NCBI GenBank assembly: GCA_965224085.1
Contig: CBDCYI010000011.1
Coordinates: 1,568,001 to 1,632,000, forward strand
DNA length: 64,000 bases
Source: Candidatus Marinacidobacterales bacterium
GTDB taxonomy: Bacteria; Acidobacteriota; Vicinamibacteria; Marinacidobacterales; SMYC01
Reading direction: 5' to 3'
Positions 17,873 through 36,005 of the stretch are shown piece by piece. The notes under the pieces were generated by a model. The model worked only from the letters and a program-made list of their open reading frames with translations, was not told the origin of the DNA and did no database searches. Position 1 is the stretch's first letter. The number at the start of each line of letters is the position of its first letter. The translations under genes were made by a program, and so were the position numbers.

Positions 17873-20314
<2,442 letters not shown>

Positions 20315-20448
20315 CCAACGTGGTGTTTCGTCATTATATCACACGCGTATAAATCGTTGCGACAGTTGAGGTTCAAGCTTTTGGATGCATGCGGCATCCC
20401 TTGGAGCATAGCACTTTCGATGCCTCGTAACCAGTGAACGACAGCTGT

Positions 20449-21117
20449 TCACATCCGCAACGTGCCATTTTCCATAAAGAACGTTCGATCGCACACGAAA
20501 GCCACGGCTTCGGAGTGAGTCACGATAACCGAGGTTAGATCGCGTTTTTCATGAAGATGGCGAAATAGGGACACGAGCCCTTCGCTGTTGCCTGTGTCGA
20601 GGTTCCCTGTGGGCTCGTCGGCAAGCACGAGGCTCGGCTCGGTGACGAGTGCCCGCGCCACGGCCACCCTTTGCTGCTCCCCGCCGGAGAGCTGAGACGG
20701 CCGGTGCGAGCCACGCTCCGAGAGGCCTAGCTCCGCGAGGAGCCTCTCGGCTCGCCGCAAGGCCTCGGCCCGCTCCATCCGGCCGATCATGAGCGGCATC
20801 GCAACGTTTTCCGCGGCCGTGAATTCTGGCAACAAGTGATGGAACTGAAAGACGAAGCCGATCGTCTCGTTGCGGAGCCGCGTACGCGCGTCCTCGTTGA
20901 GTTCGAAGAGCGACTTATCGCCGATATGTACCGTTCCCGAGTCGGGAACGTCGAGGCTGCCGAGAACGTGCATGAGCGTGCTCTTCCCGACCCCGGAGGC
21001 CCCGACAATCGCAACCATCTCCCCCTTCTCGATAGAGAGATCCACACCGCGCAGCACGTCCACACGCCTACCATTCGAAGCAAAAGCCTTGGTGAGGTTA
21101 TGTGCTTCTAAAAACAT
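20449..21117 (-). CDS. lolD: Lipoprotein-releasing ABC ATPase
   Basis: GASGVGKS, FVFQFHHLLPEF and LSGGEQQRVA motifs. Confidence 0.93.
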   Translation of the reverse strand: MFLEAHNLTKAFASNGRRVDVLRGVDLSIEKGEMVAIVGASGVGKSTLMHVLGSLDVPDSGTVHIGDKSLFELNEDARTRLRNETIGFVFQFHHLLPEFTAAENVAMPLMIGRMERAEALRRAERLLAELGLSERGSHRPSQLSGGEQQRVAVARALVTEPSLVLADEPTGNLDTGNSEGLVSLFRHLHEKRDLTSVIVTHSEAVAFVCDRTFFMENGTLRM

Positions 21118-21189
21118 GCGTCAGCTTCCGGTAGCAGCGCTGAACTCACAGTGGTAGCAGGCAGCAAAAACAACGATTCACAGAAAAAA

Positions 21190-22455
21190 TCATTCGAATC
21201 TCAAAGCTTCCGTAATAACCAATTGAGCGGCCCTTCGCGCGGGGTAGAGTGTCGCAGCGAAACACATCAGAGGGGCCGCGATGACCACCAGCATGAAATC
21301 CGCGGGGAGCAGCTTGAACGGCACCCACGCCACCTGGTAGACGTCCTCGGGGATCGAGATCACGCGATAGTGATCGAGCACCCAGGAGATCGTAACGCCC
21401 AGCGCCGCTCCCACGGCGGTTCCCGCCACACCGATGATGGCGCCCTGCAACATGAAGATGCGCATGATGCTCTTGGCGCTCGCCCCCATCGATCGAAGAA
21501 TGGCGATGTCCCGTGTCTTGTTCATGACGATCATGATCTGGCTCGCGATGATATTGAGAGCGGCCACACCCACGATGAAGCCGATGAAGATCGTCGTCAC
21601 CACCTTCTCGACCCAGAAGGCGGAAAAAAGACTACGGTTCGTTTCCTTCCAGTTCATCGAGCCGTACTCGCCACCAATCGCTCTCATAACGTCCAACTCG
21701 ACGCGCCCGACGTCGAAGATATCCAAAACTTTCGTCTCGACATACATCGCCTCATCCCCGACACCGAGAAGCCGCTGCGCGTCGGGAAGATGCAGAAGCG
21801 CCCACGAGTTGTCGAAGTTATAGAGCCCGAGCTGGAAAATACCCACGACGCGAAAGCTTCGCGTGCGCGGCAGCATGCCGAACGGGCTTAGATGGCCTTC
21901 GGGCGACGTGACTTTCATGATATCCCCGATGAAGACGCCGAGCGTCATCGCAAGCTCTTCCCCGACGATGATAGGCGGCGGCTCGTTCGCAAGCTCCTCA
22001 CCCGAAACATTTCCCTCAGACTTTTCGGGCTCGGACAGGCGCATCAGCTCTCCGACCAACATTTTCTGCCCGAACTCGGTGACGGTGGCTTCGAGCTCCG
22101 GCTCGATGCCCTTGAGCGTCACGAGCCCGGAGCCGGTCGCGCTCGAGACGAGCGCTTTGCCGTACAACACGGGGGCAGCCCCCACGACGGCATCGATACC
22201 GCCGAGCTTCGCCATAACGTCCCGATAATCCGCGAAGGCTTCCCCTCCACCTTTGTAGATGCTCAGATGGGAGGCGGCTCCGAGGATGCGTGAGCGCAGC
22301 TCGCCTTGCATCCCCGTCAAGATCGCGAGTGCGATGAGCAGGATCATGACACCCACAACGACGCCTAGAGTGGAGATGGTCGAGATCACTGCAATGAAGA
22401 GCTGACGTCGTTGCGCGAAGAGGTAGCGCAGCGCGATCCTCAGCTCGAAAGGCAT
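21190..22455 (-). CDS. lolE: Lipoprotein-releasing ABC permease LolC/E
   Basis: MPFELRIALRYL start, MacB/FtsX topology and YPARRAA motif. Confidence 0.88.
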   Translation of the reverse strand: MPFELRIALRYLFAQRRQLFIAVISTISTLGVVVGVMILLIALAILTGMQGELRSRILGAASHLSIYKGGGEAFADYRDVMAKLGGIDAVVGAAPVLYGKALVSSATGSGLVTLKGIEPELEATVTEFGQKMLVGELMRLSEPEKSEGNVSGEELANEPPPIIVGEELAMTLGVFIGDIMKVTSPEGHLSPFGMLPRTRSFRVVGIFQLGLYNFDNSWALLHLPDAQRLLGVGDEAMYVETKVLDIFDVGRVELDVMRAIGGEYGSMNWKETNRSLFSAFWVEKVVTTIFIGFIVGVAALNIIASQIMIVMNKTRDIAILRSMGASAKSIMRIFMLQGAIIGVAGTAVGAALGVTISWVLDHYRVISIPEDVYQVAWVPFKLLPADFMLVVIAAPLMCFAATLYPARRAAQLVITEALRFE

Positions 22456-22456
22456 G

Positions 22457-23992
22457 TTATTCCTCGCCCTCGCGCGCATCCGCTGCAGCGGAGCGCCCGC
22501 TCTCAGGCCTCAGGTGCGGGAACAAGATGACGTCGCGGATGGAGTGCGAGTCCGTGAACAGCATGACGAGCCGATCGATACCGAGTCCCTCGCCTCCGGT
22601 GGGCGGGAGGCCGTGCATCAAAGCCCGCACATAATCCTCGTCCATATCGTGCGCTTCCGCGTCACCGCGGGCGCGCTCTTCGAGCTGCGCCTCGAAGCGG
22701 GCTCTCTGATCGTCGGGATCGTTGAGCTCGCTGAAGCCGTTCGCAACCTCCATTCCAGCGATGAACAGCTCGAACCGCTCGACGAACACCGGATCGTCGC
22801 GCTTCTTCTTGGAGAAAGGAGAGACATCTACCGGATAGTCTGTTACGAAAGTCGGCTGTACGAGTGACGCCTCGATGAGATGATCAAAGAGCACGCTCAG
22901 GAGCTTTCCCCACGGGGCGCCCTCGTCTAGGCCGAGCTCGAGCTTGCGGCCAAGCTCGACGAGCACTTCGCGCTCCCGCAACTCCTCCGGCCCGATTTCG
23001 AGGTCGTGTATGCGGAGCGCTTCGACGACGCCGTCGAGCATCGCGAGGCGCCGGTACGGCGGTGTCAGATCGATCTCGACCTCTCCGTAGCGAAGCGGCT
23101 TTCCGTCGTGGACGTTTTTCTGGAGCTCGGCCAGAAGCTCTTCTGTGAGCGCCATCATACTCTCGACATCACTATAGGCTTCATAGAACTCGAGCATGGT
23201 GAATTCGGGGTTGTGGCGCGTCGAGATTCCCTCATTGCGGAAATTGCGATTGATCTCGTAGACCTTTTCGAGCCCGCCCACGGTCAGTCGCTTGAGATAG
23301 AGCTCGGGGGCGATGCGCATATAGAGCTCGATCCCGAGAGTGTTGTGAAACGTTTTGAACGGCCGCGCGGTGGCACCACCGGCGATGGGCTGAAGCATCG
23401 GAGTCTCGACTTCAATATATCCGTGTGCGTCGAAGAAATCTCGGATCCGGGCGACAACGCGGCTGCGGGTGACAAAAATGGCGCGGGAATCTTCGTTCGC
23501 AATGAGGTCCAGATAGCGTTGGCGGTAGCGGATCTCCACATCGGCCAGGCCATGCCATTTTTCGGGGAGCGGCTTGAGAGCTTTGGCGAGAAATGTGAGT
23601 TTTTCGACTCTGAGCGTGAGCTCGCCTGTTTTAGTCCGAAACAAAGGTCCCTGGACACCGATGAAATCTCCAATGTCGAGCTTCTTGTAAATGGCGAAAC
23701 CCGGATCCTCGACCGTGTCCTTGCGTACGTAGATTTGGAGCTTGCCTGCACCGTCGCTCAATCGCAGAAATCCTGCTTTCCCGAATTTGTTCAGGGCCAC
23801 GATGCGCCCGGCCGTTCGGACCTGAACCGGATCTTTATCGAGCTCCTCCTCGCTCTTCGTATCGAACGTGGTGAACGCCTCCGAAACAGTATGCGTCCGG
23901 TCGAAGCGAGTCGGATAGACGTTCACTCCGAGCTCTCCGAGCTCCTGTCTCTTCGTGCGCCTTTCCTTTTCGATACGGTCTTCGACACCCAC
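22457..23992 (-). CDS. lysS: Lysine-tRNA ligase (class II)
   Basis: LPEKWHGL, RYRQRYLDL, FRNEG..RHNPEF and GLGIDRL; start reassigned to GTG 23992 adjoining the nusB stop. Confidence 0.97.
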   Translation of the reverse strand: MGVEDRIEKERRTKRQELGELGVNVYPTRFDRTHTVSEAFTTFDTKSEEELDKDPVQVRTAGRIVALNKFGKAGFLRLSDGAGKLQIYVRKDTVEDPGFAIYKKLDIGDFIGVQGPLFRTKTGELTLRVEKLTFLAKALKPLPEKWHGLADVEIRYRQRYLDLIANEDSRAIFVTRSRVVARIRDFFDAHGYIEVETPMLQPIAGGATARPFKTFHNTLGIELYMRIAPELYLKRLTVGGLEKVYEINRNFRNEGISTRHNPEFTMLEFYEAYSDVESMMALTEELLAELQKNVHDGKPLRYGEVEIDLTPPYRRLAMLDGVVEALRIHDLEIGPEELREREVLVELGRKLELGLDEGAPWGKLLSVLFDHLIEASLVQPTFVTDYPVDVSPFSKKKRDDPVFVERFELFIAGMEVANGFSELNDPDDQRARFEAQLEERARGDAEAHDMDEDYVRALMHGLPPTGGEGLGIDRLVMLFTDSHSIRDVILFPHLRPESGRSAAADAREGEE

Positions 23993-24411
23993 TATCTGCT
24001 CTCCGATGTCGCTTCGATATTGGCACAAACGGCGTCGAGCACGCCGTTCACGAAACTGACCGCGTCGGGCGCGGAGAAGCGCTTCGTGATCTCGAGCGCC
24101 TCGTTGATGACGACCCTTTTGGGGGTCTCGGTATCGAGAAACTCGTAGACCGCAATTCTCAGAATGTTGCGATCGACGGCCGCCATCCGAGAAAGCCTCC
24201 AGCGGTCGGACTGCGCGGTGATGAGCGCATCGATCTCTTCTACGCGGCGGATCGTTTCTTCCGCGAGCGAGCGACCGAAATCCCGCGCCTCTTGGCTCGG
24301 ATTTCGGATCTCGTCCATCGACCAAACGACCTCTCCGACGGACGCACGGGTGACATCCCATTGGTAAAGCATTTGAACTGCGAACTCACGCCCTTTCCTG
24401 CGCACCCCCAT
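23992..24411 (-). CDS. nusB: Transcription antitermination factor NusB
   Basis: RRKGREFAVQMLYQ, DRNILR, INEALEI and FVNGVLD motifs. Confidence 0.96.
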   Translation of the reverse strand: MGVRRKGREFAVQMLYQWDVTRASVGEVVWSMDEIRNPSQEARDFGRSLAEETIRRVEEIDALITAQSDRWRLSRMAAVDRNILRIAVYEFLDTETPKRVVINEALEITKRFSAPDAVSFVNGVLDAVCANIEATSESR

Positions 24412-26846: not shown

Positions 26847-27467
26847 TTACGGGGTCCCGTAGAGCCGGTCTCCGAAGTCACCCAGCCCAGGGACGATATA
26901 TTTGCGCTCGTCGAGGCCGCGGTCGACCGCCGCGGTGTAGATATCGACCTCGGGGCAGTCCTGGGACAGCCGGTCGATCCCTTCGGGAGCGGCAACGATA
27001 CACAAAAGACGAACGTTCGTCGCAGCGTGCTCCTTCAACAAAGACACCGCGGCGCTGGCCGAGCCACCGGTGGCCAACATGGGGTCGAGCAGAAAAACGA
27101 AACGGCCAGAAAGATCCGGAAGCTTTCGATAATATTGACGCGCAACCGCCGTCGATTCGTCTCTCTCGAGCCCGACATAGCCGACCGATGCGGAGGGAAA
27201 GACCAACAGCATGACTTCGAGCATGCCCATTCCCGCACGCAAAACGGGCACGAGCACGACGCTTGCATCCAGCTTTTGGACATCGGTCTCCTCGAGCGGC
27301 GTGCGGACACGCTCCGTACGACCCCGTAGATCGCGCGACGCGTCATAGGCGAGAAGCGTCGTCACCCGACTCGCGAGCGGGCGAAAACGCTCCGGCGGTG
27401 TCGAGGCATCTCGAAGTTCCGAGCGCACGTCATCGATCAAGGGATGCTTCACATGATGAAGCGCCAC
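26847..27467 (-). CDS. upp: Uracil phosphoribosyltransferase
   Basis: VPVLRAG, LDPMLATGGS and YIVPGLGDFGDRLYG motifs. Confidence 0.97.
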   Translation of the reverse strand: MALHHVKHPLIDDVRSELRDASTPPERFRPLASRVTTLLAYDASRDLRGRTERVRTPLEETDVQKLDASVVLVPVLRAGMGMLEVMLLVFPSASVGYVGLERDESTAVARQYYRKLPDLSGRFVFLLDPMLATGGSASAAVSLLKEHAATNVRLLCIVAAPEGIDRLSQDCPEVDIYTAAVDRGLDERKYIVPGLGDFGDRLYGTP

Positions 27468-27515
27468 TTCGGACTCCTTTCAACAGAAAGCTGTTATTAT
27501 CCTATCCTTTCGGCG

Positions 27516-28835
27516 ATGAGAGCGGTTGATCTACTCCACAAAAAAAGACACGGGCTCGCACTCGAGCCCGAGGAGATTCGCTTTCTCGTCGATGGCTTCA
27601 TCGCAGATGCGATCCCGAGCTACCAAATCTCTGCTTTTCTCATGGCGGTGAGCATCCAAGGGATGAACGAGCGCGAGACGCGCGCGCTCACGGAAACGAT
27701 GCTCGCGAGCGGCGCCGTGCTCGATCTCTCGGACATTCCGGGACCCAAAATCGACAAACACAGCACCGGCGGCGTCGGGGACAAGACGTCGCTCATAGTC
27801 GCCCCGCTCGCCGCAGCGGCGGGGCTGCGCGTGCCGATGATCTCCGGCCGCGGCCTCGGGCATTCGGGCGGAACGCTGGACAAGCTCGAGGCCATTCCGG
27901 GCTTCGAGATCCGAATCGACGAGAAGCGTTTTCGCGAGCTCGTCGCCTCTGTCGGATGCGCGCTCATTGGTCAGACCGATGGCATCGCTCCCGCCGACCG
28001 CAAGCTCTACGCGTTGCGGGACGTGACCGCCACGATCGACAGTTTGCCGCTGATTACCGGCAGCATCCTCTCGAAAAAGCTCGCCGAAGGGATTTCCGGG
28101 CTCGTTCTCGACGTGAAGTTCGGAAGCGGCGCGTTCATGAAAACTGTCGAAGAAGCGAACGCCCTCGCGAAACTTCTGCTCAAAACCGCAGCTCACATGG
28201 GCAAGAGAGCCGTCGCCCTCCTCACCGACATGAGCCAACCGCTCGGGAATTATGTCGGCAACGCACTCGAGGTAGAGGAGTCGATCGCCGTGCTCAAAGG
28301 CCACGGCGCCCGCGACTTGGCCGAGCTTTCGTTGACGCTCACAGCGCACATGCTGGTGCTCGGCGACTTGGCGCGGACGGTCGAAGACGGAGAGAAAAAA
28401 GCGTCGCAGGAGCTTCAGTCCGGGCGAGGCCTCGAGAAGCTTCGGCAGATCGTCCGAGCACAAGGGGGCGACGCTGCCGTGATCGACGAGCCCCGCCTCC
28501 TTCCACAAGCGAGCGCGAGACGCGTCCTACAGGTGGCAGCCGGGGGCCACGTTTCCGCGATCGAGACGGAAGCGCTCGGGCACGCGGCGATGCTCATTGG
28601 CGCTGGACGACGGACGGTGGACGATGTGATCGATCCGGCTGCGGGTCTCGTCATTCACAAGAAGCTCGGGGATAAAGTCACGAAAGGCGAGCCGCTCCTC
28701 ACATTTCACTACAACGATGACACGAACCTCGAAGAGGCTGCCGAGCTGGTGGCGAACGCCTATCAAATCACCGATGCTCGAAACGCTCCGCGCGAGCTCG
28801 TGCACTCGGTTCTCACGACGGAAAGGAAGACTTGA
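27516..28835 (+). CDS. pdp: Pyrimidine-nucleoside (thymidine) phosphorylase
   Basis: DKHSTGGVGDK, SGRGLGHSGGT.DKLE and YALRDVT; start trimmed to ATG 27516. Confidence 0.96.
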   Translation: MRAVDLLHKKRHGLALEPEEIRFLVDGFIADAIPSYQISAFLMAVSIQGMNERETRALTETMLASGAVLDLSDIPGPKIDKHSTGGVGDKTSLIVAPLAAAAGLRVPMISGRGLGHSGGTLDKLEAIPGFEIRIDEKRFRELVASVGCALIGQTDGIAPADRKLYALRDVTATIDSLPLITGSILSKKLAEGISGLVLDVKFGSGAFMKTVEEANALAKLLLKTAAHMGKRAVALLTDMSQPLGNYVGNALEVEESIAVLKGHGARDLAELSLTLTAHMLVLGDLARTVEDGEKKASQELQSGRGLEKLRQIVRAQGGDAAVIDEPRLLPQASARRVLQVAAGGHVSAIETEALGHAAMLIGAGRRTVDDVIDPAAGLVIHKKLGDKVTKGEPLLTFHYNDDTNLEEAAELVANAYQITDARNAPRELVHSVLTTERKT

Positions 28836-30037
28836 TGGAGCAATATATCGGCATCGTCGGGCTCGTCGTCCTTTTGGGGATAGCCTATCTCGCGTCACAG
28901 AATCGGAAAGCCATCGGCGGGCGCGTCATCGTCTGGGGCCTCGTTCTCCAATTTGCTTTCGCTTTGTTCGTGATAAAGGTTCCGGTCGGCGTGTCGATCC
29001 TTGCATGGGTGAGCGGCGTCGTGACTGAACTCATGAACAAAGCTTCGGCCGGTGCGGCATTCGTGTTCGGAGAGGAGCTCGCTAAGAATCAAAGCCTCGG
29101 CTTCATCTTCGCGGTCAAAGCCCTCCCTATCATCATCTTTCTTTCTTCCCTATTCGCGGTCATGTATTACATCGGGCTGTTGCAGATCATCGTTCTGGCG
29201 ATGGCCAAAGTGATGGCGCGCACGATGGGGACGAGCGGCGCGGAGTCGCTTGCGACCGCGGCCAACGTTTTCATGGGTCAGACCGAGGCCCCTCTCGTCA
29301 TCGCGCCCTACATCGACAAGATGACCAATTCGGAGGTCGCCATGTTGATGGTCGGCGGGATGGCGACGATCTCGGGCGCCGTTTTGGGCGCGTATATCAG
29401 TTTCGGGGCCGAAGCACAATTCTTGTTGGCCGCGAGCATCATGAACGCGCCCGCTGCCATCGTGATGGCGAAGATGCTCGTTCCGGAAATGGGTGAGCCC
29501 CTCACACGCGGCGAAGTCAAGCTCGAGCTCGAGCGAAAAGAAGTCAACATTATCGACGCCGCCGCGCGGGGCGCGAGCGCCGGAATGACGCTGTCTCTCA
29601 ACATCGCAGCCATGTTGATAGCCTTCGTGTCGCTCATAGCACTCGTTAATTGGCCACTCCAATATTTCGATCTCTCGCTCGAGCAGATCTTTGCCAGGTT
29701 GTTCGCGCCTCTCGCTTACTTGATGGGCGTCCCTTGGGCGGAGTCGGGCACGGTCGGGAACCTGATCGGGCAGAAAGTGATCATCAACGAGTTCGTCGCC
29801 TATCAATCGCTGGGCGCGCTCAAGACCGCCGGTGCTATCGGCGCGCGCGCAGAGCTCATCTCCACCTACGCTCTGTGCGGTTTCGCCAATATCGGCTCTA
29901 TCGCGATCCAAATAGGCGGGATTGGCGGCCTTGCACCAGCACGCAAGCAAGACCTCGCCCGCCTCGGGCTTCGTGCGCTGCTCGGCGGGTCGCTCGCCAC
30001 GTTCATGACCGCGACGATTGCTGGACTATTGAGTTGA
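28832..30037 (+). CDS. nupC: Concentrative nucleoside transporter (NupC/CNT)
   Basis: FMGQTEAPL, GGMATISG, NEFVAY and LCGFAN motifs. Confidence 0.95.
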   Translation: MMEQYIGIVGLVVLLGIAYLASQNRKAIGGRVIVWGLVLQFAFALFVIKVPVGVSILAWVSGVVTELMNKASAGAAFVFGEELAKNQSLGFIFAVKALPIIIFLSSLFAVMYYIGLLQIIVLAMAKVMARTMGTSGAESLATAANVFMGQTEAPLVIAPYIDKMTNSEVAMLMVGGMATISGAVLGAYISFGAEAQFLLAASIMNAPAAIVMAKMLVPEMGEPLTRGEVKLELERKEVNIIDAAARGASAGMTLSLNIAAMLIAFVSLIALVNWPLQYFDLSLEQIFARLFAPLAYLMGVPWAESGTVGNLIGQKVIINEFVAYQSLGALKTAGAIGARAELISTYALCGFANIGSIAIQIGGIGGLAPARKQDLARLGLRALLGGSLATFMTATIAGLLS

Positions 30038-30074
30038 GTGTCGTTTTCCCCGTTTTCTATTGTCAGGAAGTCCT

Positions 30075-30899
30075 GTGAATCTCGTTGAGAAAATTCAAGA
30101 GGCAGCCACCTATATCGGGTCGAAGACGAGGATTCGGGCCAAGGTTGGTATCGTGCTCGGGTCGGGGCTCGGCGCATTCGCCGATTCCTTGACGGAGGCG
30201 ACCGAATTTCCCTACGAGGCTATCCCTCATTTCCCGAGCTCGAGCGTCGAAGGGCACAAAGGCAAGTTGATCGCGGGAAAGTTCGCGCACGTTCCGGTGC
30301 TCGTCATGGCCGGCCGCGTACATGCCTACGAAGGCTATAGCGCTGCGGACGTCGTGTTCCCGGCTCGCGTCATGGTGACGAGCGGCGCACAGAACCTCGT
30401 CCTCACCAATGCCGCTGGCGCTGTCAATGCCGCTTTCAAGCCGGGCGATCTGATGGTCATCACCGATCAATTGAACTTGACCGGCTTGAACCCTCTCGTC
30501 GGCCCAGAGCTGCCCGAGCTCGGACATCGCTTCACCGACGTTTCTTCCGCCTATCATCCCGCTCATATCGAGACGTGCAACAAAGCCGCGCGCCGAATCG
30601 GATTGACCTTGAGAAAAGGCGTCTATGCGGGGCTTCTCGGGCCGAGCTTCGAGACGCCAGCCGAGATTCGTATGCTCCGCACGATGGGAGCCGACGCCGT
30701 CGGGATGTCCACCGTGCTCGAGACGATCGCCGCGCATCAGATGCGTGCCCGCGTGCTCGGGATCTCCTGTATCACCAACATGGCAGCTGGAATCCTCCAG
30801 CAAAAGATCAACCATCAAGAGGTCAGGGAGGTAGGCGCTCGCGTTAGCTCCGTATTCCTCGAGCTCATCAGCTCACTCTTACCGGACCTAATGAAATGA
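30075..30899 (+). CDS. punA: Purine nucleoside phosphorylase (trimeric, PunA/XapA type)
   Basis: LGSGLG, GRVHAYEG, GPSFETPAE and VGMSTV.E motifs. Confidence 0.94.
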   Translation: MNLVEKIQEAATYIGSKTRIRAKVGIVLGSGLGAFADSLTEATEFPYEAIPHFPSSSVEGHKGKLIAGKFAHVPVLVMAGRVHAYEGYSAADVVFPARVMVTSGAQNLVLTNAAGAVNAAFKPGDLMVITDQLNLTGLNPLVGPELPELGHRFTDVSSAYHPAHIETCNKAARRIGLTLRKGVYAGLLGPSFETPAEIRMLRTMGADAVGMSTVLETIAAHQMRARVLGISCITNMAAGILQQKINHQEVREVGARVSSVFLELISSLLPDLMK

Positions 30900-31291
30900 T
30901 TGACATTCCAAAAGACCTCGTCGAGCACGCCACGCGCGTCCGCGAGAATGCAGTGGCGGATTTCTCCAAGTTCAAAGTCGGCGCAGCACTTCGCAGCAAC
31001 GGAGGCGACATCTTTACTGGCTGCAACGTCGAGAACGCTACCCTCGGACTGACCATATGCGCCGAGCGCGTGGCGCTCTTCAAAGCGCTCTCAGAAGGCG
31101 CCCGGGCCTTCACCGAGATCGTCGTCGTCACCGCCGCCGACAAACCGACGCCACCCTGCGGCGCCTGCCGGCAAATGCTGTGGGAGTTTTGTGGCGACAT
31201 CCCCGTCTACATGGTGAGCACCAACGGAACGAACGACACGATGAAGATGAGCGAGCTGTTTCCGAGAGCGTTCGATAAATCGGGCCTGTGA
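30896..31291 (+). CDS. cdd: Cytidine deaminase (tetrameric type)
   Basis: GCNVEN, CAER and PCGACRQ motifs. Confidence 0.95.
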   Translation: MIDIPKDLVEHATRVRENAVADFSKFKVGAALRSNGGDIFTGCNVENATLGLTICAERVALFKALSEGARAFTEIVVVTAADKPTPPCGACRQMLWEFCGDIPVYMVSTNGTNDTMKMSELFPRAFDKSGL

Positions 31292-31356
31292 GGCTGTGAC
31301 GGAAGTTGACGTCCGTGCTGCCGGCTACCCGTGCGTTTCGCCACGTCCCAGCTGAC

Positions 31357-31862
31357 TCAATCTCGTACGGCGACAAACGGTAGTTGACGGTAGCGTTGGT
31401 TGTCGTCTAGGCCGTAGCCGACGACGAGGCGATCGGGGACTTCGAAGCCGACATAATCGACAGCAACGTCGAACTCGCGCCGGGACGGCTTCGATAGAAA
31501 CGCGGCCACCTTTAATGTAGCCGGCTCGCGCGAACGGAGCATGTTGAGAAGATAGTTGAGCGTGAGCCCTGTATCCGCAATGTCCTCGACGACGATCACG
31601 TCGCGGCCCGCGAGCGACAAGTCCAGGTCCTTCGTCAGCTGAACCTCTCCGCTCGAAGTTTTGCCCTTCCCATAGGATGACACCGCGAGGAAGTCGAGCG
31701 TCACCGGCACTTCCATCGCTCGCGCGAGATCGGCGAGAAAAGTATAGCGCCTTTCAGCACGCAGATGAGATGGACCGTCTTCCCTTGATAGTCCGCGCTG
31801 ATTTCTTTAGCCAGCTCGCGGACGCGCCTCGCGATTTGTTCTTCGCTGATCAGGACTTCCAT
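31357..31862 (-). pseudogene. hpt: Hypoxanthine phosphoribosyltransferase split by a 1-bp frameshift near 31740
   Basis: The N-terminus (MEVLISEEQI...VLKGAILF) and the remainder (LADLARAMEVPV...VEDIADTG..VVGYGLD) are in different frames. The break lies in CTTTTC and could be a sequencing error. Confidence 0.88.
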
Positions 31863-31912
31863 TCTCTCTCTAGTGTCTAACTCGCTCACCGAGCGCGGGC
31901 GGCAGCTCGCGC

Positions 31913-31958
31913 GAAGTGTAAGGCGATTAGGGAAGTGTAAGGCAGGGACGTGTAGGGA
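31913..31958. repeat. Direct repeats GAAGTGTAAGGC x2 plus a degenerate third copy, upstream of hpt
   Basis: Copies at 31913-31924 and 31932-31943; GACGTGTAGGGA at 31947-31958. Confidence 0.7.
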
Positions 31959-32054
31959 CAGGAGGGGATAAGGGGATCTCCGCCTCTCCACACATCCCCA
32001 CCGCTCGTTTTCTGATACATCGACGGGCGGTAGGTCTTCACCACTCTGAGCGGA

Positions 32055-32978
32055 TCAGCCTTGGGCGAACAACTCGAACGTCACGGTAATGACGCCGTAG
32101 GCTTCGATCGGCCGGCCCTCTTTGAGGGCGGGCTTCCACCTCCAGAGTTTGGCATTATCTTTAGCAGCCTCGACGCAATACCGAAGGGATTTCAAGACCC
32201 GGACGACTTCGGTGGTCCCGTCGAGCTTCACGAGGACTTCGAGCAACACTTCCCCTCGCACCATCTTTTCGCGGGCAGCGGCCGGATAGTCGGGGCTCGG
32301 AGGCTTGAAAACAAGAGCGGGCTCGATATCCCACGCGCCCGGCGAGTAATCGCCGCCGCCGAAACCGCCTCCGCGCCCGGGGCCGACCGCCCAGCCTTCG
32401 CCGCTACCCACGCCCGTGCCTTCGCCGCCGCCGACACCGCCATCGGTGCCTGCGCTCGGTCGGTTGTCGAGGCCGCCGAAATCCCGCATGTCATCCAAAG
32501 ACAATCCGGGGAACTCTTGCTCATCCGGCGAGAACACCCCAGCGAAAATGATATCCGTATCGGTAGGTAAATCCGGAACGTTCAAGTCGTCGAAACGGAG
32601 CTTTGGCGGCTTTCGGGGCGCCACTGGCGCGCGACGCGGCTCCGGCTCCACCTCGGGCTCCGGCGCCTCCGGCGGTGGTCTTGTGCGGATAAAGGCGGAA
32701 ATCCGCTCCCCACCCGAGCCGCCACCACCGCCACCGCTCCCGCGCCCACTCCCGCCTGGCTCATAGAAGCGGACGAGCACCCCTCCCGCTTCCATCGGAT
32801 CTTGGGACATCCAGCTAGCTATGGGCGGGAGAAGCATGAAGAGGAAGACGAGAACATGCACACCCCCGGCGGCCGAGAGAGATTTTGTGCGTTCGTCCCA
32901 ACCGAGCTTTGGCGCACTCTCCTCGGAGAGGCGTTCCATTCCGGAAAAGAACTCCGGACCTTGGCTCATGTCACCCAT
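32055..32978 (-). CDS. TonB family energy transducer
   Basis: N-terminal TM with His, Gly/Pro-rich linker and TonB-C domain (YPAAARE..VRGEV.LEV.V..DG; WRWKPA). Confidence 0.88.
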   Translation of the reverse strand: MGDMSQGPEFFSGMERLSEESAPKLGWDERTKSLSAAGGVHVLVFLFMLLPPIASWMSQDPMEAGGVLVRFYEPGGSGRGSGGGGGGSGGERISAFIRTRPPPEAPEPEVEPEPRRAPVAPRKPPKLRFDDLNVPDLPTDTDIIFAGVFSPDEQEFPGLSLDDMRDFGGLDNRPSAGTDGGVGGGEGTGVGSGEGWAVGPGRGGGFGGGDYSPGAWDIEPALVFKPPSPDYPAAAREKMVRGEVLLEVLVKLDGTTEVVRVLKSLRYCVEAAKDNAKLWRWKPALKEGRPIEAYGVITVTFELFAQG

Positions 32979-33089
32979 CCTGGCCAAATGTTAGCACGGC
33001 GGCCAGGACGACGCCCGTCGCCGGCCATGAACTTGCGTCCTACGGGTCGGCCCCGACGGACCGCGGATTTCCGTCGCCGATTCAAGGGC

Positions 33090-33118
33090 TTGCAAGAAAT
33101 CAAGGGGCGTCATAGATT
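33090..33118 (+). promoter_or_regulatory. Sigma70 promoter of rpiB-deoC, probably giving a leaderless mRNA
   Basis: TTGCAA-N17-TAGATT, 7 nt before GTG 33126. Confidence 0.65.
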
Positions 33119-33125
33119 AAGCCGA

Positions 33126-33758
33126 GTGGCCGACGACAAACGCCGCATCCTGACGGGCGAGGATGTCCAATCGATTCCTGAAGGAGGTATTCTCGACATC
33201 ACGCCGGGCACGTTGCTCACCGACATCGCTCGTGAGTGGGTCGACCGGCGCAAGATCCGAATCGTCGAACGCATGCGCTCGGGCGACGACGCCATCGCCG
33301 CAGTGAAGCTCGCGATCGGCTCTGACCATGGCGGCTTCGAAATGAAAAGCGCCCTCAGGGAATACCTCGACGTGCTAAAAGCGAGTTATATCGACTATGG
33401 CACCCGTTCGAAAAGAGCGGTCGACTACCCGGACATCGCCCACGCCGTCGCTCTCTCCGTCGCCCTCGGACAGGCGAAGCAAGGGATCATCATCGACGGC
33501 GCCGGTATCGGCTCAGCCATCGTCGCTAACAAAGTCCCTGGCATTCGCGCAGCAGCGTGCTACGAGGAAGCGGGCGCTATGAACGCACGCGAGCACAACG
33601 ACATCAACGTGCTCACGCTCGGCTCCAACCTGATGCTCCCCGAAAAGCTGCGGCCCATCGTGCGCATCTTCATGAGCGCCGAGCACCGCGAGCCCCGTCA
33701 CAAGAACCGGGTGGCGAAGATCATGGCGGTCGAAAAGAAGTATTATCGACCCGTATGA
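33126..33758 (+). CDS. rpiB: RpiB/LacAB sugar-phosphate isomerase with a BMC-associated (EutQ-N-like) N-terminal domain
   Basis: [26 protein letters not shown] and AREHND; N-terminal RILTGEDV...[12 protein letters not shown]. Confidence 0.9.
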
Positions 33759-34588
33759 GCTGGGACCTGGAACGTCTCACAGACGCGGTGACCGAGGCTG
33801 TGCTCTTGGAGCTCGGCGCCGCCGATCGTCCATGCAGCTGCCATCATCTCGATCGCAGCCAGTGTCCCGACGTGATGCAGCCGCTCGTCGATCGCGGCGC
33901 GGAACGGTTTGGCCTAACGGCTTCCGCTCCTCATCGAAGCCTCGCCGCTCTCATCGACCACACGCTTCTCAAACCCGACGCCACCGAAGAGCAGATCCGA
34001 ACGCTGTGCGCCGAAGCGGCCACGCATCGATTCGCGACTGTATGTATTCAGCCAACCTGGGTGCGGCTCGCCGCCCAGCTTCTTCGCGGAACGAGCGTCG
34101 GCGTTTGCACCGTCTCCGGATTTCCGCTTGGCGCCAATAGTCCGGACGTCAAAGCCTACGAGACCCGTCGCGCAATATTCGACGGCGCCAATGAAGTCGA
34201 CATGGTGATCAATATCGGCGCACTCAAGTCGATAGACTACCGCACCGTCGAAGACGACATCCGCGGAGTCGTCGAAGCGTGCCGAGAAGGATCCGCGCTG
34301 AGCAAGGTCATCATAGAGACGGCGCTTCTCACCGAAGACGAGAAAGTCAAAGCATCCACGCTCGTGGCTGCGGCCGGCGCCGACTTCATCAAGACCTCGA
34401 CCGGATTCGGGCCCGGAGGCGCAACCGTCGAAGACGTCGCGCTCATGCGGGACATCGTCGGCCAGAAAATGGGCGTCAAAGCCGCAGGTGGCGTCCGCGA
34501 TCGCGCGACCGCAAAACAGATGGTGGATGCCGGAGCAACCCGGATCGGCGCGAGTGCGGGGATCCGCATCATTCAGGCGAGCGACTAA
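33755..34588 (+). CDS. deoC: Deoxyribose-phosphate aldolase with encapsulation-peptide-like helix and Cys/His-rich N-terminal extension
   Basis: [29 protein letters not shown] and RIGAS; ATGA overlap with rpiB. Confidence 0.95.
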
Positions 34589-35216
34589 GAGCCCGACTCG
34601 CTTGCTCGTAGTCCTCTGGCGTATCGATATCGACGCAAACTCCCGGATCCTCGACAGGTATCTCGAGTACTTCGTCGTGGTGGCGCGCGAGCAAAGACTT
34701 CCCGCCCTGATCGCCGACGAGGGTCAGAAACTCCTCGACAAGCTCCGCGACAAAGAGCACAGGATGCCCCTGCTCGCCTCGATAGACCGGATGGGCGATG
34801 CGCGCACCGACTTCGTCGAAGGTGGCCGTGAGCGTGCGGATCGTCTCAGGCTTCACGAGCGGTTTGTCGGCGAGTGCTACGAGCACGATGCGCGTTTCTT
34901 CGGGCAAGCGCTCGAGCCCGCATCGGAGCGAGCTCGCGAGTCCGTCGTTGCTGCCAGGATTTATTACCACCTCGACGCGCTCATCATCTTTAAATAGTTT
35001 GAATGGTTTAAATGGCTTGAATGGTTTATGAGGCTCACAAAGCTCGCTCGGAGACTCGCCAGGCGAAGCGACGACGACGAGAACACGATCAAGCTCGGCG
35101 GCCAACAAATTGCGGAGGCTCCTCGACAGCATCGTCTCGCCGCCGAAAGCGAGATCGAGCTTCGGACGCCCCATTCGGCGCGATGCGCCCGCCGCAAGAA
35201 GTACCGCGACGCGCAC
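34569..35216 (-). CDS. mocA: Molybdenum cofactor cytidylyltransferase-like NTP transferase (MocA/YgfJ)
   Basis: [24 protein letters not shown] and DIDTPEDY motifs. Confidence 0.85.
34989..35030. repeat. AT-rich 9-bp tandem repeat inserted in frame in mocA ([14 protein letters not shown])
   Basis: TTTAAATAG TTTGAATGG TTTAAATGG CTTGAATGG. Confidence 0.85.
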
Positions 35217-35219
35217 CGG

Positions 35220-36005
35220 TCACTCCGCCTCGGGACGCATTCGATAGAAACATTCGGTCGGCTTGATCGCTTCGCCGAAGACAACCTCTGAAACACCTTG
35301 CTGCAATAGGCGCTCTCCGATGCTTTCCGCAGCTTTCAGACGGTAGTCGACGGCCTTGTTCAACAGGACGGTGTGGCGGCTCCCCTTCGGGATCTTAGGA
35401 AGGTAGCCTTTGACGATCGTGGCTGCGATGACGGCGTCGGTGACGTCCATGCCCGGCGACGCTCCCGATAAGCTAGCCACGATCTCGAGTCTATGGACAT
35501 GCTCCCCATCGAGCTTGTGGTCGAGAACGTCGAGGCCGACGAGGATCGCGGTGAGCGTCGTTTCAGCCGGAATCACAGGTTCGTGGCTCGCCGGCGCTTT
35601 CAAGGAACGCCCACGAGCACCGTCGGCCTCGATGACAACACAATCGGCAAGACTTCGGAGCGGGTCCAGCATCACGGGATCTACTCCAGCGAGCTTGTCG
35701 TCCCGTTTCCGATCCTGAATCACGATCACCGAGCCGTAGCGCCGAAGCCGCGCTTTGACCGTAGTGAGCCAATTGTCTTGCTCACCCACGACGACGAGCG
35801 GCGGCATCGTCGTCGCCGTCATAGGCATCTGCATATGGGTCGTCGACGTCGCGACGACGCTCAAGCCCTGGCGCCGGAGCTCCCCCGTGAGCGCGTAGAG
35901 CACGGTGGTCTTGCCGCCCGCGCCCACGAGGCTCACAACGTCACCTTTGCCTATCGATAGCGCGTCGGCGAGCCCAAAACTCGAATCGATCGCGATTTTC
36001 GCCAT
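35220..36005 (-). CDS. yqeC: YqeC, selenium-dependent molybdenum hydroxylase accessory protein
   Basis: SLVGAGGKTT, STTHM, IEADGARGRSLKAPASHEP and LLNKA; start trimmed to ATG 36005. Confidence 0.9.
   Translation of the reverse strand: MAKIAIDSSFGLADALSIGKGDVVSLVGAGGKTTVLYALTGELRRQGLSVVATSTTHMQMPMTATTMPPLVVVGEQDNWLTTVKARLRRYGSVIVIQDRKRDDKLAGVDPVMLDPLRSLADCVVIEADGARGRSLKAPASHEPVIPAETTLTAILVGLDVLDHKLDGEHVHRLEIVASLSGASPGMDVTDAVIAATIVKGYLPKIPKGSRHTVLLNKAVDYRLKAAESIGERLLQQGVSEVVFGEAIKPTECFYRMRPEAE

Follow-up and report, generated by a model that had tools for sequence, protein, structure and literature searches.

The closest described relatives of the gene pair analysed here are bacterial microcompartments (BMCs) of the sugar-phosphate-utilisation (SPU) and ACI types. 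The pair, rpiB-deoC, lies on the forward strand of a 64,000-nucleotide stretch (the window) of contig CBDCYI010000011.1 (C11 below) from a Candidatus Marinacidobacterales bacterium. According to the accessible text of Dwyer et al (2024, PMC11585597), all SPU ribose-5-phosphate isomerases (RPIs) carry a Cys-to-Asp change, and the SPU6 RPI shows negligible isomerase activity, being nearly inactive on ribose-5-phosphate. A complex of this RPI with deoxyribose-phosphate aldolase (DERA) has been shown and forms without the DERA extension, and the same text places DERA in no BMC core other than SPU. The ACI type (Sutter et al, 2021, PMC8217296; 125 loci) has a main locus encoding a class II aldolase, BMC-H, a BMC-P triplet and a short three-Cys protein, and a satellite aldehyde dehydrogenase (AldDH), often with a BMC-H, in which an encapsulation peptide (EP) is followed by a ~50-aa domain of unknown function. 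In the accessible part of that catalogue the ACI entry proposes only "carbohydrate degradation" with no substrate and names neither DeoC nor RpiB. In Salmonella, the accessible reports describe PduM and the EutQ N-terminus as links between core and shell (PMC12108088, PMC12487888). Our literature search found no paper tying ACI to DeoC or RpiB, with some supplements and subscription journals outside its reach. We consider it probable that the rpiB-deoC pair is a shell-free third locus that supplies SPU-type cargo to an ACI organelle, with DeoC as the prospective source of acetaldehyde inside it.

A tagged rpiB-deoC pair and a distant shell set

The original prediction described the window as free of shell, AldDH and deoB genes, and genome-wide searches indeed gave no match to any of them inside it. 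Elsewhere in the genome (95% complete, 12 contigs), contig C5 encodes two BMC-H and three BMC-P proteins, with one BMC-H and the three BMC-P at 1.486-1.488 Mb and the second BMC-H at 0.809 Mb. The main shell locus (L006) also encodes a class II aldolase (PF00596) with a C-terminal helix, judged by eye to be an EP, and a 72-aa protein (L006:9204-9422) with an EP-like helix and three Cys that belongs to no NCBIfam family and has conserved counterparts in 9 of the 21 main-locus stretches. At the second BMC-H lies a satellite AldDH scoring just above the cut-off of TIGR02518, the acetylating acetaldehyde dehydrogenase family (624 versus 620). The main-locus gene set, the three-Cys protein of the ~80-aa type and the satellite AldDH with EP and tail domain are all features of ACI. 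The hydroxyacid dehydrogenase and two further unknown ACI proteins were not found in the main locus (PF02826 genes lie elsewhere), and because this dehydrogenase is missing there the shell set is, by gene content, a reduced ACI variant and not the SPU-like organelle first suggested. It is the only candidate destination for the pair because no other shell set was found in the genome. The nearest named record by RpiB (94% identity) is itself Ca. Marinacidobacterales, with further matches in Pyrinomonadaceae, Bryobacteraceae and Terriglobia; we take Ca. Marinacidobacterales to belong to the Acidobacteria, the host phylum of ACI.

The rpiB gene (33126..33758, +; PF02502, E 1.8e-44) begins at a GTG that homologue alignment indicates as the most likely start, and it is coupled to deoC (33755..34588, +; TIGR00126, 290 bits versus a cut-off of 117) by the expected ATGA overlap at 33755-33758. 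RpiB falls below the TIGR01120 rpiB equivalog cut-off (121 versus 138.65). An Asp encoded at 33495..33497 (+), the mark of SPU-type RpiBs, is aligned opposite the catalytic Cys of solved RpiBs and is found in 17/17 aligned homologues; by analogy with SPU6, the protein is predicted to be a catalytically inactive scaffold. Within the RpiB alignment no variation was seen at the Asp, at the His of a REHND motif or at the residues next to them. The extra N-terminal module that had been noticed is a ~55-aa piece preceding the isomerase domain.

DeoC, the sole copy in the genome, carries the ~60-aa N-terminal extension reported earlier, running from its start at 33755 to a barrel that begins at about residue 61. 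D149, K213 and K242 are invariant in 17 aligned homologues, and we infer that they correspond to the catalytic triad of E. coli DeoC. An amphipathic, EP-like helix had been claimed at the beginning of the extension. Residues 5-19 (33767..33811, +) are helical in an AlphaFold model, at low confidence (pLDDT ~65), and show a conserved pattern; the hydrophobic moment is unremarkable, ranking 54 among the 262 16-mers of DeoC. It is thus the conservation and position of this helix that point to a candidate EP, amphipathy alone proving little. The helix is followed by a CxCH...CP motif and then a GAxR segment (33833..33910, +). In the homologue alignment C27, C29 and C37 are conserved in at least 90% and H30 in 17/17, and the motif may be a metal site. 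The GAxR segment is present in 70/75 shell-free rpiB-deoC loci, in 30/44 shell-adjacent loci and in 0/20 DeoCs of shell-less genomes. No stand-alone copy of the extension was found in ACI main loci.

The original prediction offered two readings, a satellite locus serving a distant organelle or a shell-free complex, and the distribution of the pair bears on both. In a sample of 251 Acidobacteriota genomes (of which G082, flagged unpublished, is counted in these denominators only), BMC-P was found in 135 and was absent from 116. The Cys-to-Asp RpiB motif occurred in 62/251 genomes, which come from ~25 families and are not independent; all 62 were BMC-P-positive, and a control pattern was found in none. 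DeoC was found in 160/251 genomes. The DeoC profile results cover 150 of 167 matches (the matches listed), and DeoC was called fully extended when it aligned from profile position 12 or earlier. Among the matches listed, fully extended DeoC was present in 56 genomes, 56/56 BMC-P-positive, and the 46 DeoCs of BMC-P-negative genomes all started at profile position 23 or beyond. None of the 116 BMC-P-negative genomes therefore carried the motif or, among the matches listed, a fully extended DeoC, which argues against the shell-free complex. The satellite-locus reading is favoured by the location of shells and a BMC-type AldDH on another contig and by a tagged pair that tracks shells across the phylum. 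The same relation was seen within a single DeoC clade of family f52 (SH-aLRT 99), near nupC/pdp/cdd, where DeoC is extended beside shells (L045) and bare in the shell-less L232 and L233. PF01791 matches in G127 and G163 that the DeoC profile did not detect were read as probable other class I aldolases.

Gene maps revealed two architectures: SPU loci that are contiguous, and a dispersed form whose three separate loci are aldolase II-shell, BMC-H-AldDH and rpiB-deoC. In none of the 21 stretches examined did the pair adjoin an ACI main locus, and the single-contig relatives G002, G003, G010 and G025 have exactly three BMC-P together with the same shell-free pair. In a quick maximum-likelihood tree of DeoC cores (161 rows; short loci L008-L037 and L122 left out as largely duplicate), the window DeoC sits among DeoCs of its own order (SH-aLRT 98), and this clade belongs to a group of 130 rows (support 87). 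That larger group contains 71/75 dispersed and 42/44 shell-adjacent DeoCs and leaves 16/20 shell-less ones outside; the backbone is poorly resolved, and for this reason we claim no direction of change.

The RpiB module (33141..33269, +), ~45 aa long, is predicted to form a small alpha/beta domain (residues 7-47, pLDDT 83-89) on a flexible linker. Profile searches found it to be common to RpiB and the C-terminal domain of the ACI AldDH. A narrow first profile of the RpiB module returned the tail of this genome's own satellite AldDH as second match (E 0.065), and a wider profile built from RpiB only (103 sequences) again placed that AldDH second (E 0.0017, among 78,816 open reading frames (ORFs)) and also matched 24 AldDH ORFs in loci. 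The reciprocal profile of 28 AldDH tails matched 59 RpiB and 5 DeoC ORFs among 20,847. By these profile results, the module and the C-terminal domain of the ACI AldDH are homologues. It was found on 89/90 RpiBs without shell genes in the stretch versus 5/45 shell-adjacent RpiBs, a split that profile training, the ranking of the homologue search and short contigs exaggerate. In L087-L091, L265 and L266 it is fused to DeoC, ahead of the helix, and the Cys-to-Asp RpiB motif was not found there. The original prediction likened the module to EutQ and to BMC-accessory domains. A weak match to the PduM C-terminus was recovered (TIGR04493, E 0.0085), while no EutQ model was listed at E≤0.5, and no search made showed the EutQ likeness. 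Because the module weakly resembles the PduM C-terminus, and PduM and the EutQ N-terminus tie core to shell, a shell-docking role for it is a reasonable hypothesis.

Several further observations concern these proteins. In the Chloroflexota SPU loci L157, L166, L175 and L187 the module is encoded on its own, as a 110-150-aa protein, in the midst of shell genes; an AldDH ~50% identical to the ACI AldDH is present in several of these loci. In two Rhodothermales loci (L188:8702-9529, L190:7877-9331) the ORF following the module-bearing RpiB ends in a strong module copy and matched none of the queries used. ESM Atlas searches with the module gave scores of 0.81 at most, one cluster with 12% PF15953 being a lead only, and the RpiB model, searched by fold, retrieved RpiB folds, with no bearing on the module. 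In DeoC, the end of the extension (33890-33910) resembles the last helix-strand of the barrel (34520-34545), the extension profile matching both, and this likeness of the GAxR segment is possibly an internal duplication. The Chloroflexota loci L130 and L131 carry a module-RpiB, DeoC, BMC-H and BMC-P triplet contiguously, with no AldDH in the stretch, and may be intermediate between the SPU and dispersed forms. L097, with DeoC beside aldolase II and BMC-P, was considered as a joined ACI locus; it has BMC-T genes, looks SPU5/HO-like and was not used. YHS-domain and TPR genes (L006:11407-12283) precede the aldolase in 11/21 main-locus stretches.

A proposed pathway and its rivals

According to the proposed pathway, NupC would import deoxynucleosides and Pdp and PunA would release deoxyribose-1-phosphate in the cytosol. 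A PGM/PMM-family mutase, invoked because no deoB was found, would then convert this to the 5-phosphate, the weakest step of the proposal; four PGM/PMM genes and one TPI are encoded elsewhere in the genome. DeoC would be packaged via its N-terminal helix, and RpiB would act as a catalytically dead DeoC-binding partner, as in SPU6, and its module would help to attach cargo to the shell. A second, more constant supply of aldehyde would come from the main-locus class II aldolase, making the DeoC pair an optional input of a two-aldolase organelle. Encapsulation of the pair in the ACI shell is a prediction from sequence. Deoxyribose-5-phosphate as the substrate is supported by the gene neighbourhoods of relatives, since deoB adjoins rpiB-deoC in 16 loci, mainly of Pyrinomonadaceae (one representative confirmed as deoB), and a Planctomycetota locus has deoB beside the pair together with pdp, nupC and punA.

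A number of results weigh against this proposal, among them the non-independence of the motif-bearing genomes, the unremarkable hydrophobic moment of the DeoC helix and the weak backbone of the DeoC tree given above. In the 95%-complete genome, searches found no deoB and no PTAC, acetate kinase or PduS. BMC-T was likewise not found, there being only two single-domain PF00936 matches and no tblastn match with a BMC-T query. These absences leave the mutase step, CoA/NAD recycling and the passage of sugar phosphate through the shell unexplained. The AldDH-tail profile did not match this genome's own RpiB at E≤2. In 61 relatives BMC-P was detected in 32, DeoC likewise in 32, RpiB in 30 and Pdp in 28. 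Family f3 scores 0/28 for each of BMC-P, RpiB and Pdp, with one partial DeoC match; this joint absence speaks for the proposal, but it counts as one loss, in a family of small genomes. ACI-type AldDH, defined by our own cut-off as a match to this genome's AldDH at E≤1e-135, was found in 111/251 genomes, 110 of them with BMC-P; 60 of the 111 score a marker of the pair and 51 score neither, although ~10 of the 51 carry a tagged pair or tagged DeoC missed by the cut-offs. Entire families, f9 (0/4) and f34 (1/19 DeoC) among them, lack the pair. Because of families such as these, DeoC is not a universal ACI signature and the pair is a common, optional cargo.

Much of the same evidence could be read as a DeoC-RpiB complex that stays in the cytosol, its tags being SPU relics or serving only to hold the two proteins together, with the shell packaging just aldolase II and AldDH. 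The single DeoC copy could have a cytosolic role, none of the 21 stretches shows the pair beside an ACI main locus, many ACI genomes are without the pair, and, in the accessible text on SPU6, DERA and RPI assemble without the DERA extension (PMC11585597). We nevertheless regard this as unlikely, as tags, Cys motif and dead RpiB all persist in several classes, only together with shell genes, and the tags are absent from close shell-less kin. It is less likely still that the pair is encapsulated for other chemistry, with the Asp-RpiB isomerising another sugar phosphate for the class II aldolase in one pathway instead of two inputs. In its favour, the Asp, the REHND His and their neighbours are invariant, Dwyer et al leave other substrates open in the accessible text (PMC11585597), and none of the 25 NCBIfam families shown has a cut-off that aldolase II reaches. 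Against this stand the near inactivity of the SPU6 RPI on ribose-5-phosphate described in the same source (PMC11585597), the loci in which the RpiB domain can be missing while the module persists on DeoC, and a neighbourhood of deoxynucleoside-salvage genes. Finally, a genome 95% complete in 12 contigs might conceal a separate SPU locus that the pair serves; given the four single-contig relatives, each with exactly three BMC-P and a pair that is likewise shell-free, we consider this very improbable.

If the pair does supply an ACI organelle, ACI, which is found in Acidobacteria of soils and sediments, gains a predicted, assayable input in deoxyribose-5-phosphate, the sugar of scavenged DNA, and the scoring of the ACI dehydrogenase as an acetaldehyde enzyme would be explained. 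The claim in the literature that DERA is confined to SPU loci would need qualifying, and surveys restricted to the neighbours of shell genes would overlook whole cargo loci. As the chemistry is already known from SPU6, the surprise would be moderate; Acidobacteria are abundant in soils and ACI is among the larger catalogued microcompartment types. More tentatively, and with slightly more doubt than confidence, we suggest that ACI occurs in about four in ten of the sampled genomes, that over half of these have a three-locus, two-aldolase organelle recycling DNA sugar, and that the mobile ~45-aa domain found on the AldDH tail, RpiB and DeoC is a hitherto unrecognised shell-docking tag by which cargo that is scattered and expressed separately reaches the shell. 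In that reading the SPU-type cargo of ACI was overlooked because it lies far from any shell gene. The module would be a candidate small folded targeting domain, useful for loading enzymes into shells.

Genes around the pair

The original prediction embedded the pair in a nucleoside-salvage island, and all six of its named neighbours were identified by ORF and family scans. These are upp, uracil phosphoribosyltransferase (26847..27467, −; PF14681), a divergent neighbour; pdp, pyrimidine-nucleoside phosphorylase (27516..28835, +; TIGR02644); nupC, Na+/nucleoside transporter (28832..30037, +; PF07662/PF01773); punA, purine-nucleoside phosphorylase (30060..30899, +; TIGR01700); cdd, cytidine deaminase (30896..31291, +; PF00383); and hpt (31357..31861, −), present as two PF00156 pieces owing to a one-base frameshift near 31745. 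The order is upp(−) / pdp-nupC-punA-cdd(+) / hpt and a TonB C-terminal-domain protein (32055..32987, −; PF03544) / rpiB-deoC(+) / a mocA/ygfJ-like gene and yqeC (34569-36005, −), the last two lying 3′ of deoC. A single operon with pdp-nupC-punA-cdd is excluded by the strands, as hpt and the TonB C-terminal-domain gene, both minus, intervene after cdd; since upp is minus and divergent and two opposite-strand genes separate cdd from rpiB, the pair is a separate two-gene unit. What stands is a loose conserved neighbourhood, neither an island nor a shared operon. GC content is 58-63% versus 60% for the genome, and the order, apart from one or two genes, is kept in the six stretches of the same family that were compared; recent transfer was rejected on the basis of GC and synteny, and the DeoC tree tracks host taxonomy near the window. 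On gene maps of relatives, 32/42 shell-free stretches have at least one salvage gene, hpt occurring in 27.

Main contigs of runs X1, X3 and X7, which belong to three studies, carry the hpt frameshift; X9 and a minor X7 strain lack it. The lesion is a strain-level pseudogene, because three runs carry it and the fourth does not. All four runs lack 19 bases of the window at 31913-31932 and read C for A at 32551, which are probably small assembly errors. Upstream regions of six rpiB genes, aligned to look for a shared promoter or regulator motif, gave no clear signal, and no sigma-70-like site was found. The mocA/ygfJ-like gene and yqeC are markers of selenium-dependent molybdenum hydroxylases, with xdhC-like genes nearby in relatives, and a link to purine base catabolism is possible. 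Further upstream (17873-24361), translations presumably correspond to clpC, lolD, lolC/E and lysS, an ordinary housekeeping neighbourhood.

Comparison with known microcompartments

Throughout this comparison, features of the published types are those given in the accessible parts of the cited sources. Like ACI (PMC8217296), the present system belongs to Acidobacteria, has the main-locus set and a satellite AldDH with helix and tail domain, and coexists with no other BMC type; unlike ACI, it has a third, shell-free locus with DeoC and RpiB, its unknown tail domain recurs on RpiB, and its main locus lacks a hydroxyacid dehydrogenase. With SPU (Axen et al, 2014, PMC4207490; Dwyer et al, 2024, PMC11585597) it shares adjacent rpiB-deoC in the same order, an extended DeoC with catalytic residues intact, a Cys-to-Asp RpiB, an acetylating AldDH and a BMC-P triplet. 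In contrast, SPU enzymes are encoded in the shell locus with AldDH, whereas here the pair is on C11 and the shells and AldDH are on C5; the SPU RPI has a plain helix tag where this RpiB has a folded module; and most SPU subtypes have BMC-T (inconsistently in SPU4), whereas no BMC-T, PTAC or PduS was found in this genome. The pair would thus appear to work like an SPU core, but its locus, being neither contiguous with shell genes nor accompanied by BMC-T, is not an SPU locus.

The types FRAG5, FRAG8 and HO (PMC8217296) are close precedents. FRAG5 and FRAG8 combine fragmented loci and SPU enzymes with an AldDH closest to that of ACI, and a remote DeoC that bears an EP-like extension has been proposed as cargo in some HO genomes. 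They differ in belonging to other phyla and in comprising 3-41 loci, in that FRAG5/8 enzymes lie near shell genes, and in that the remark on HO covers DeoC only. The module, finally, recalls the PduM and EutQ linkers (PMC12108088, PMC12487888) as small, non-catalytic ties between cargo and shell, its match to PduM being weak (E 0.0085); unlike those linkers, the module of this system is fused to enzymes.

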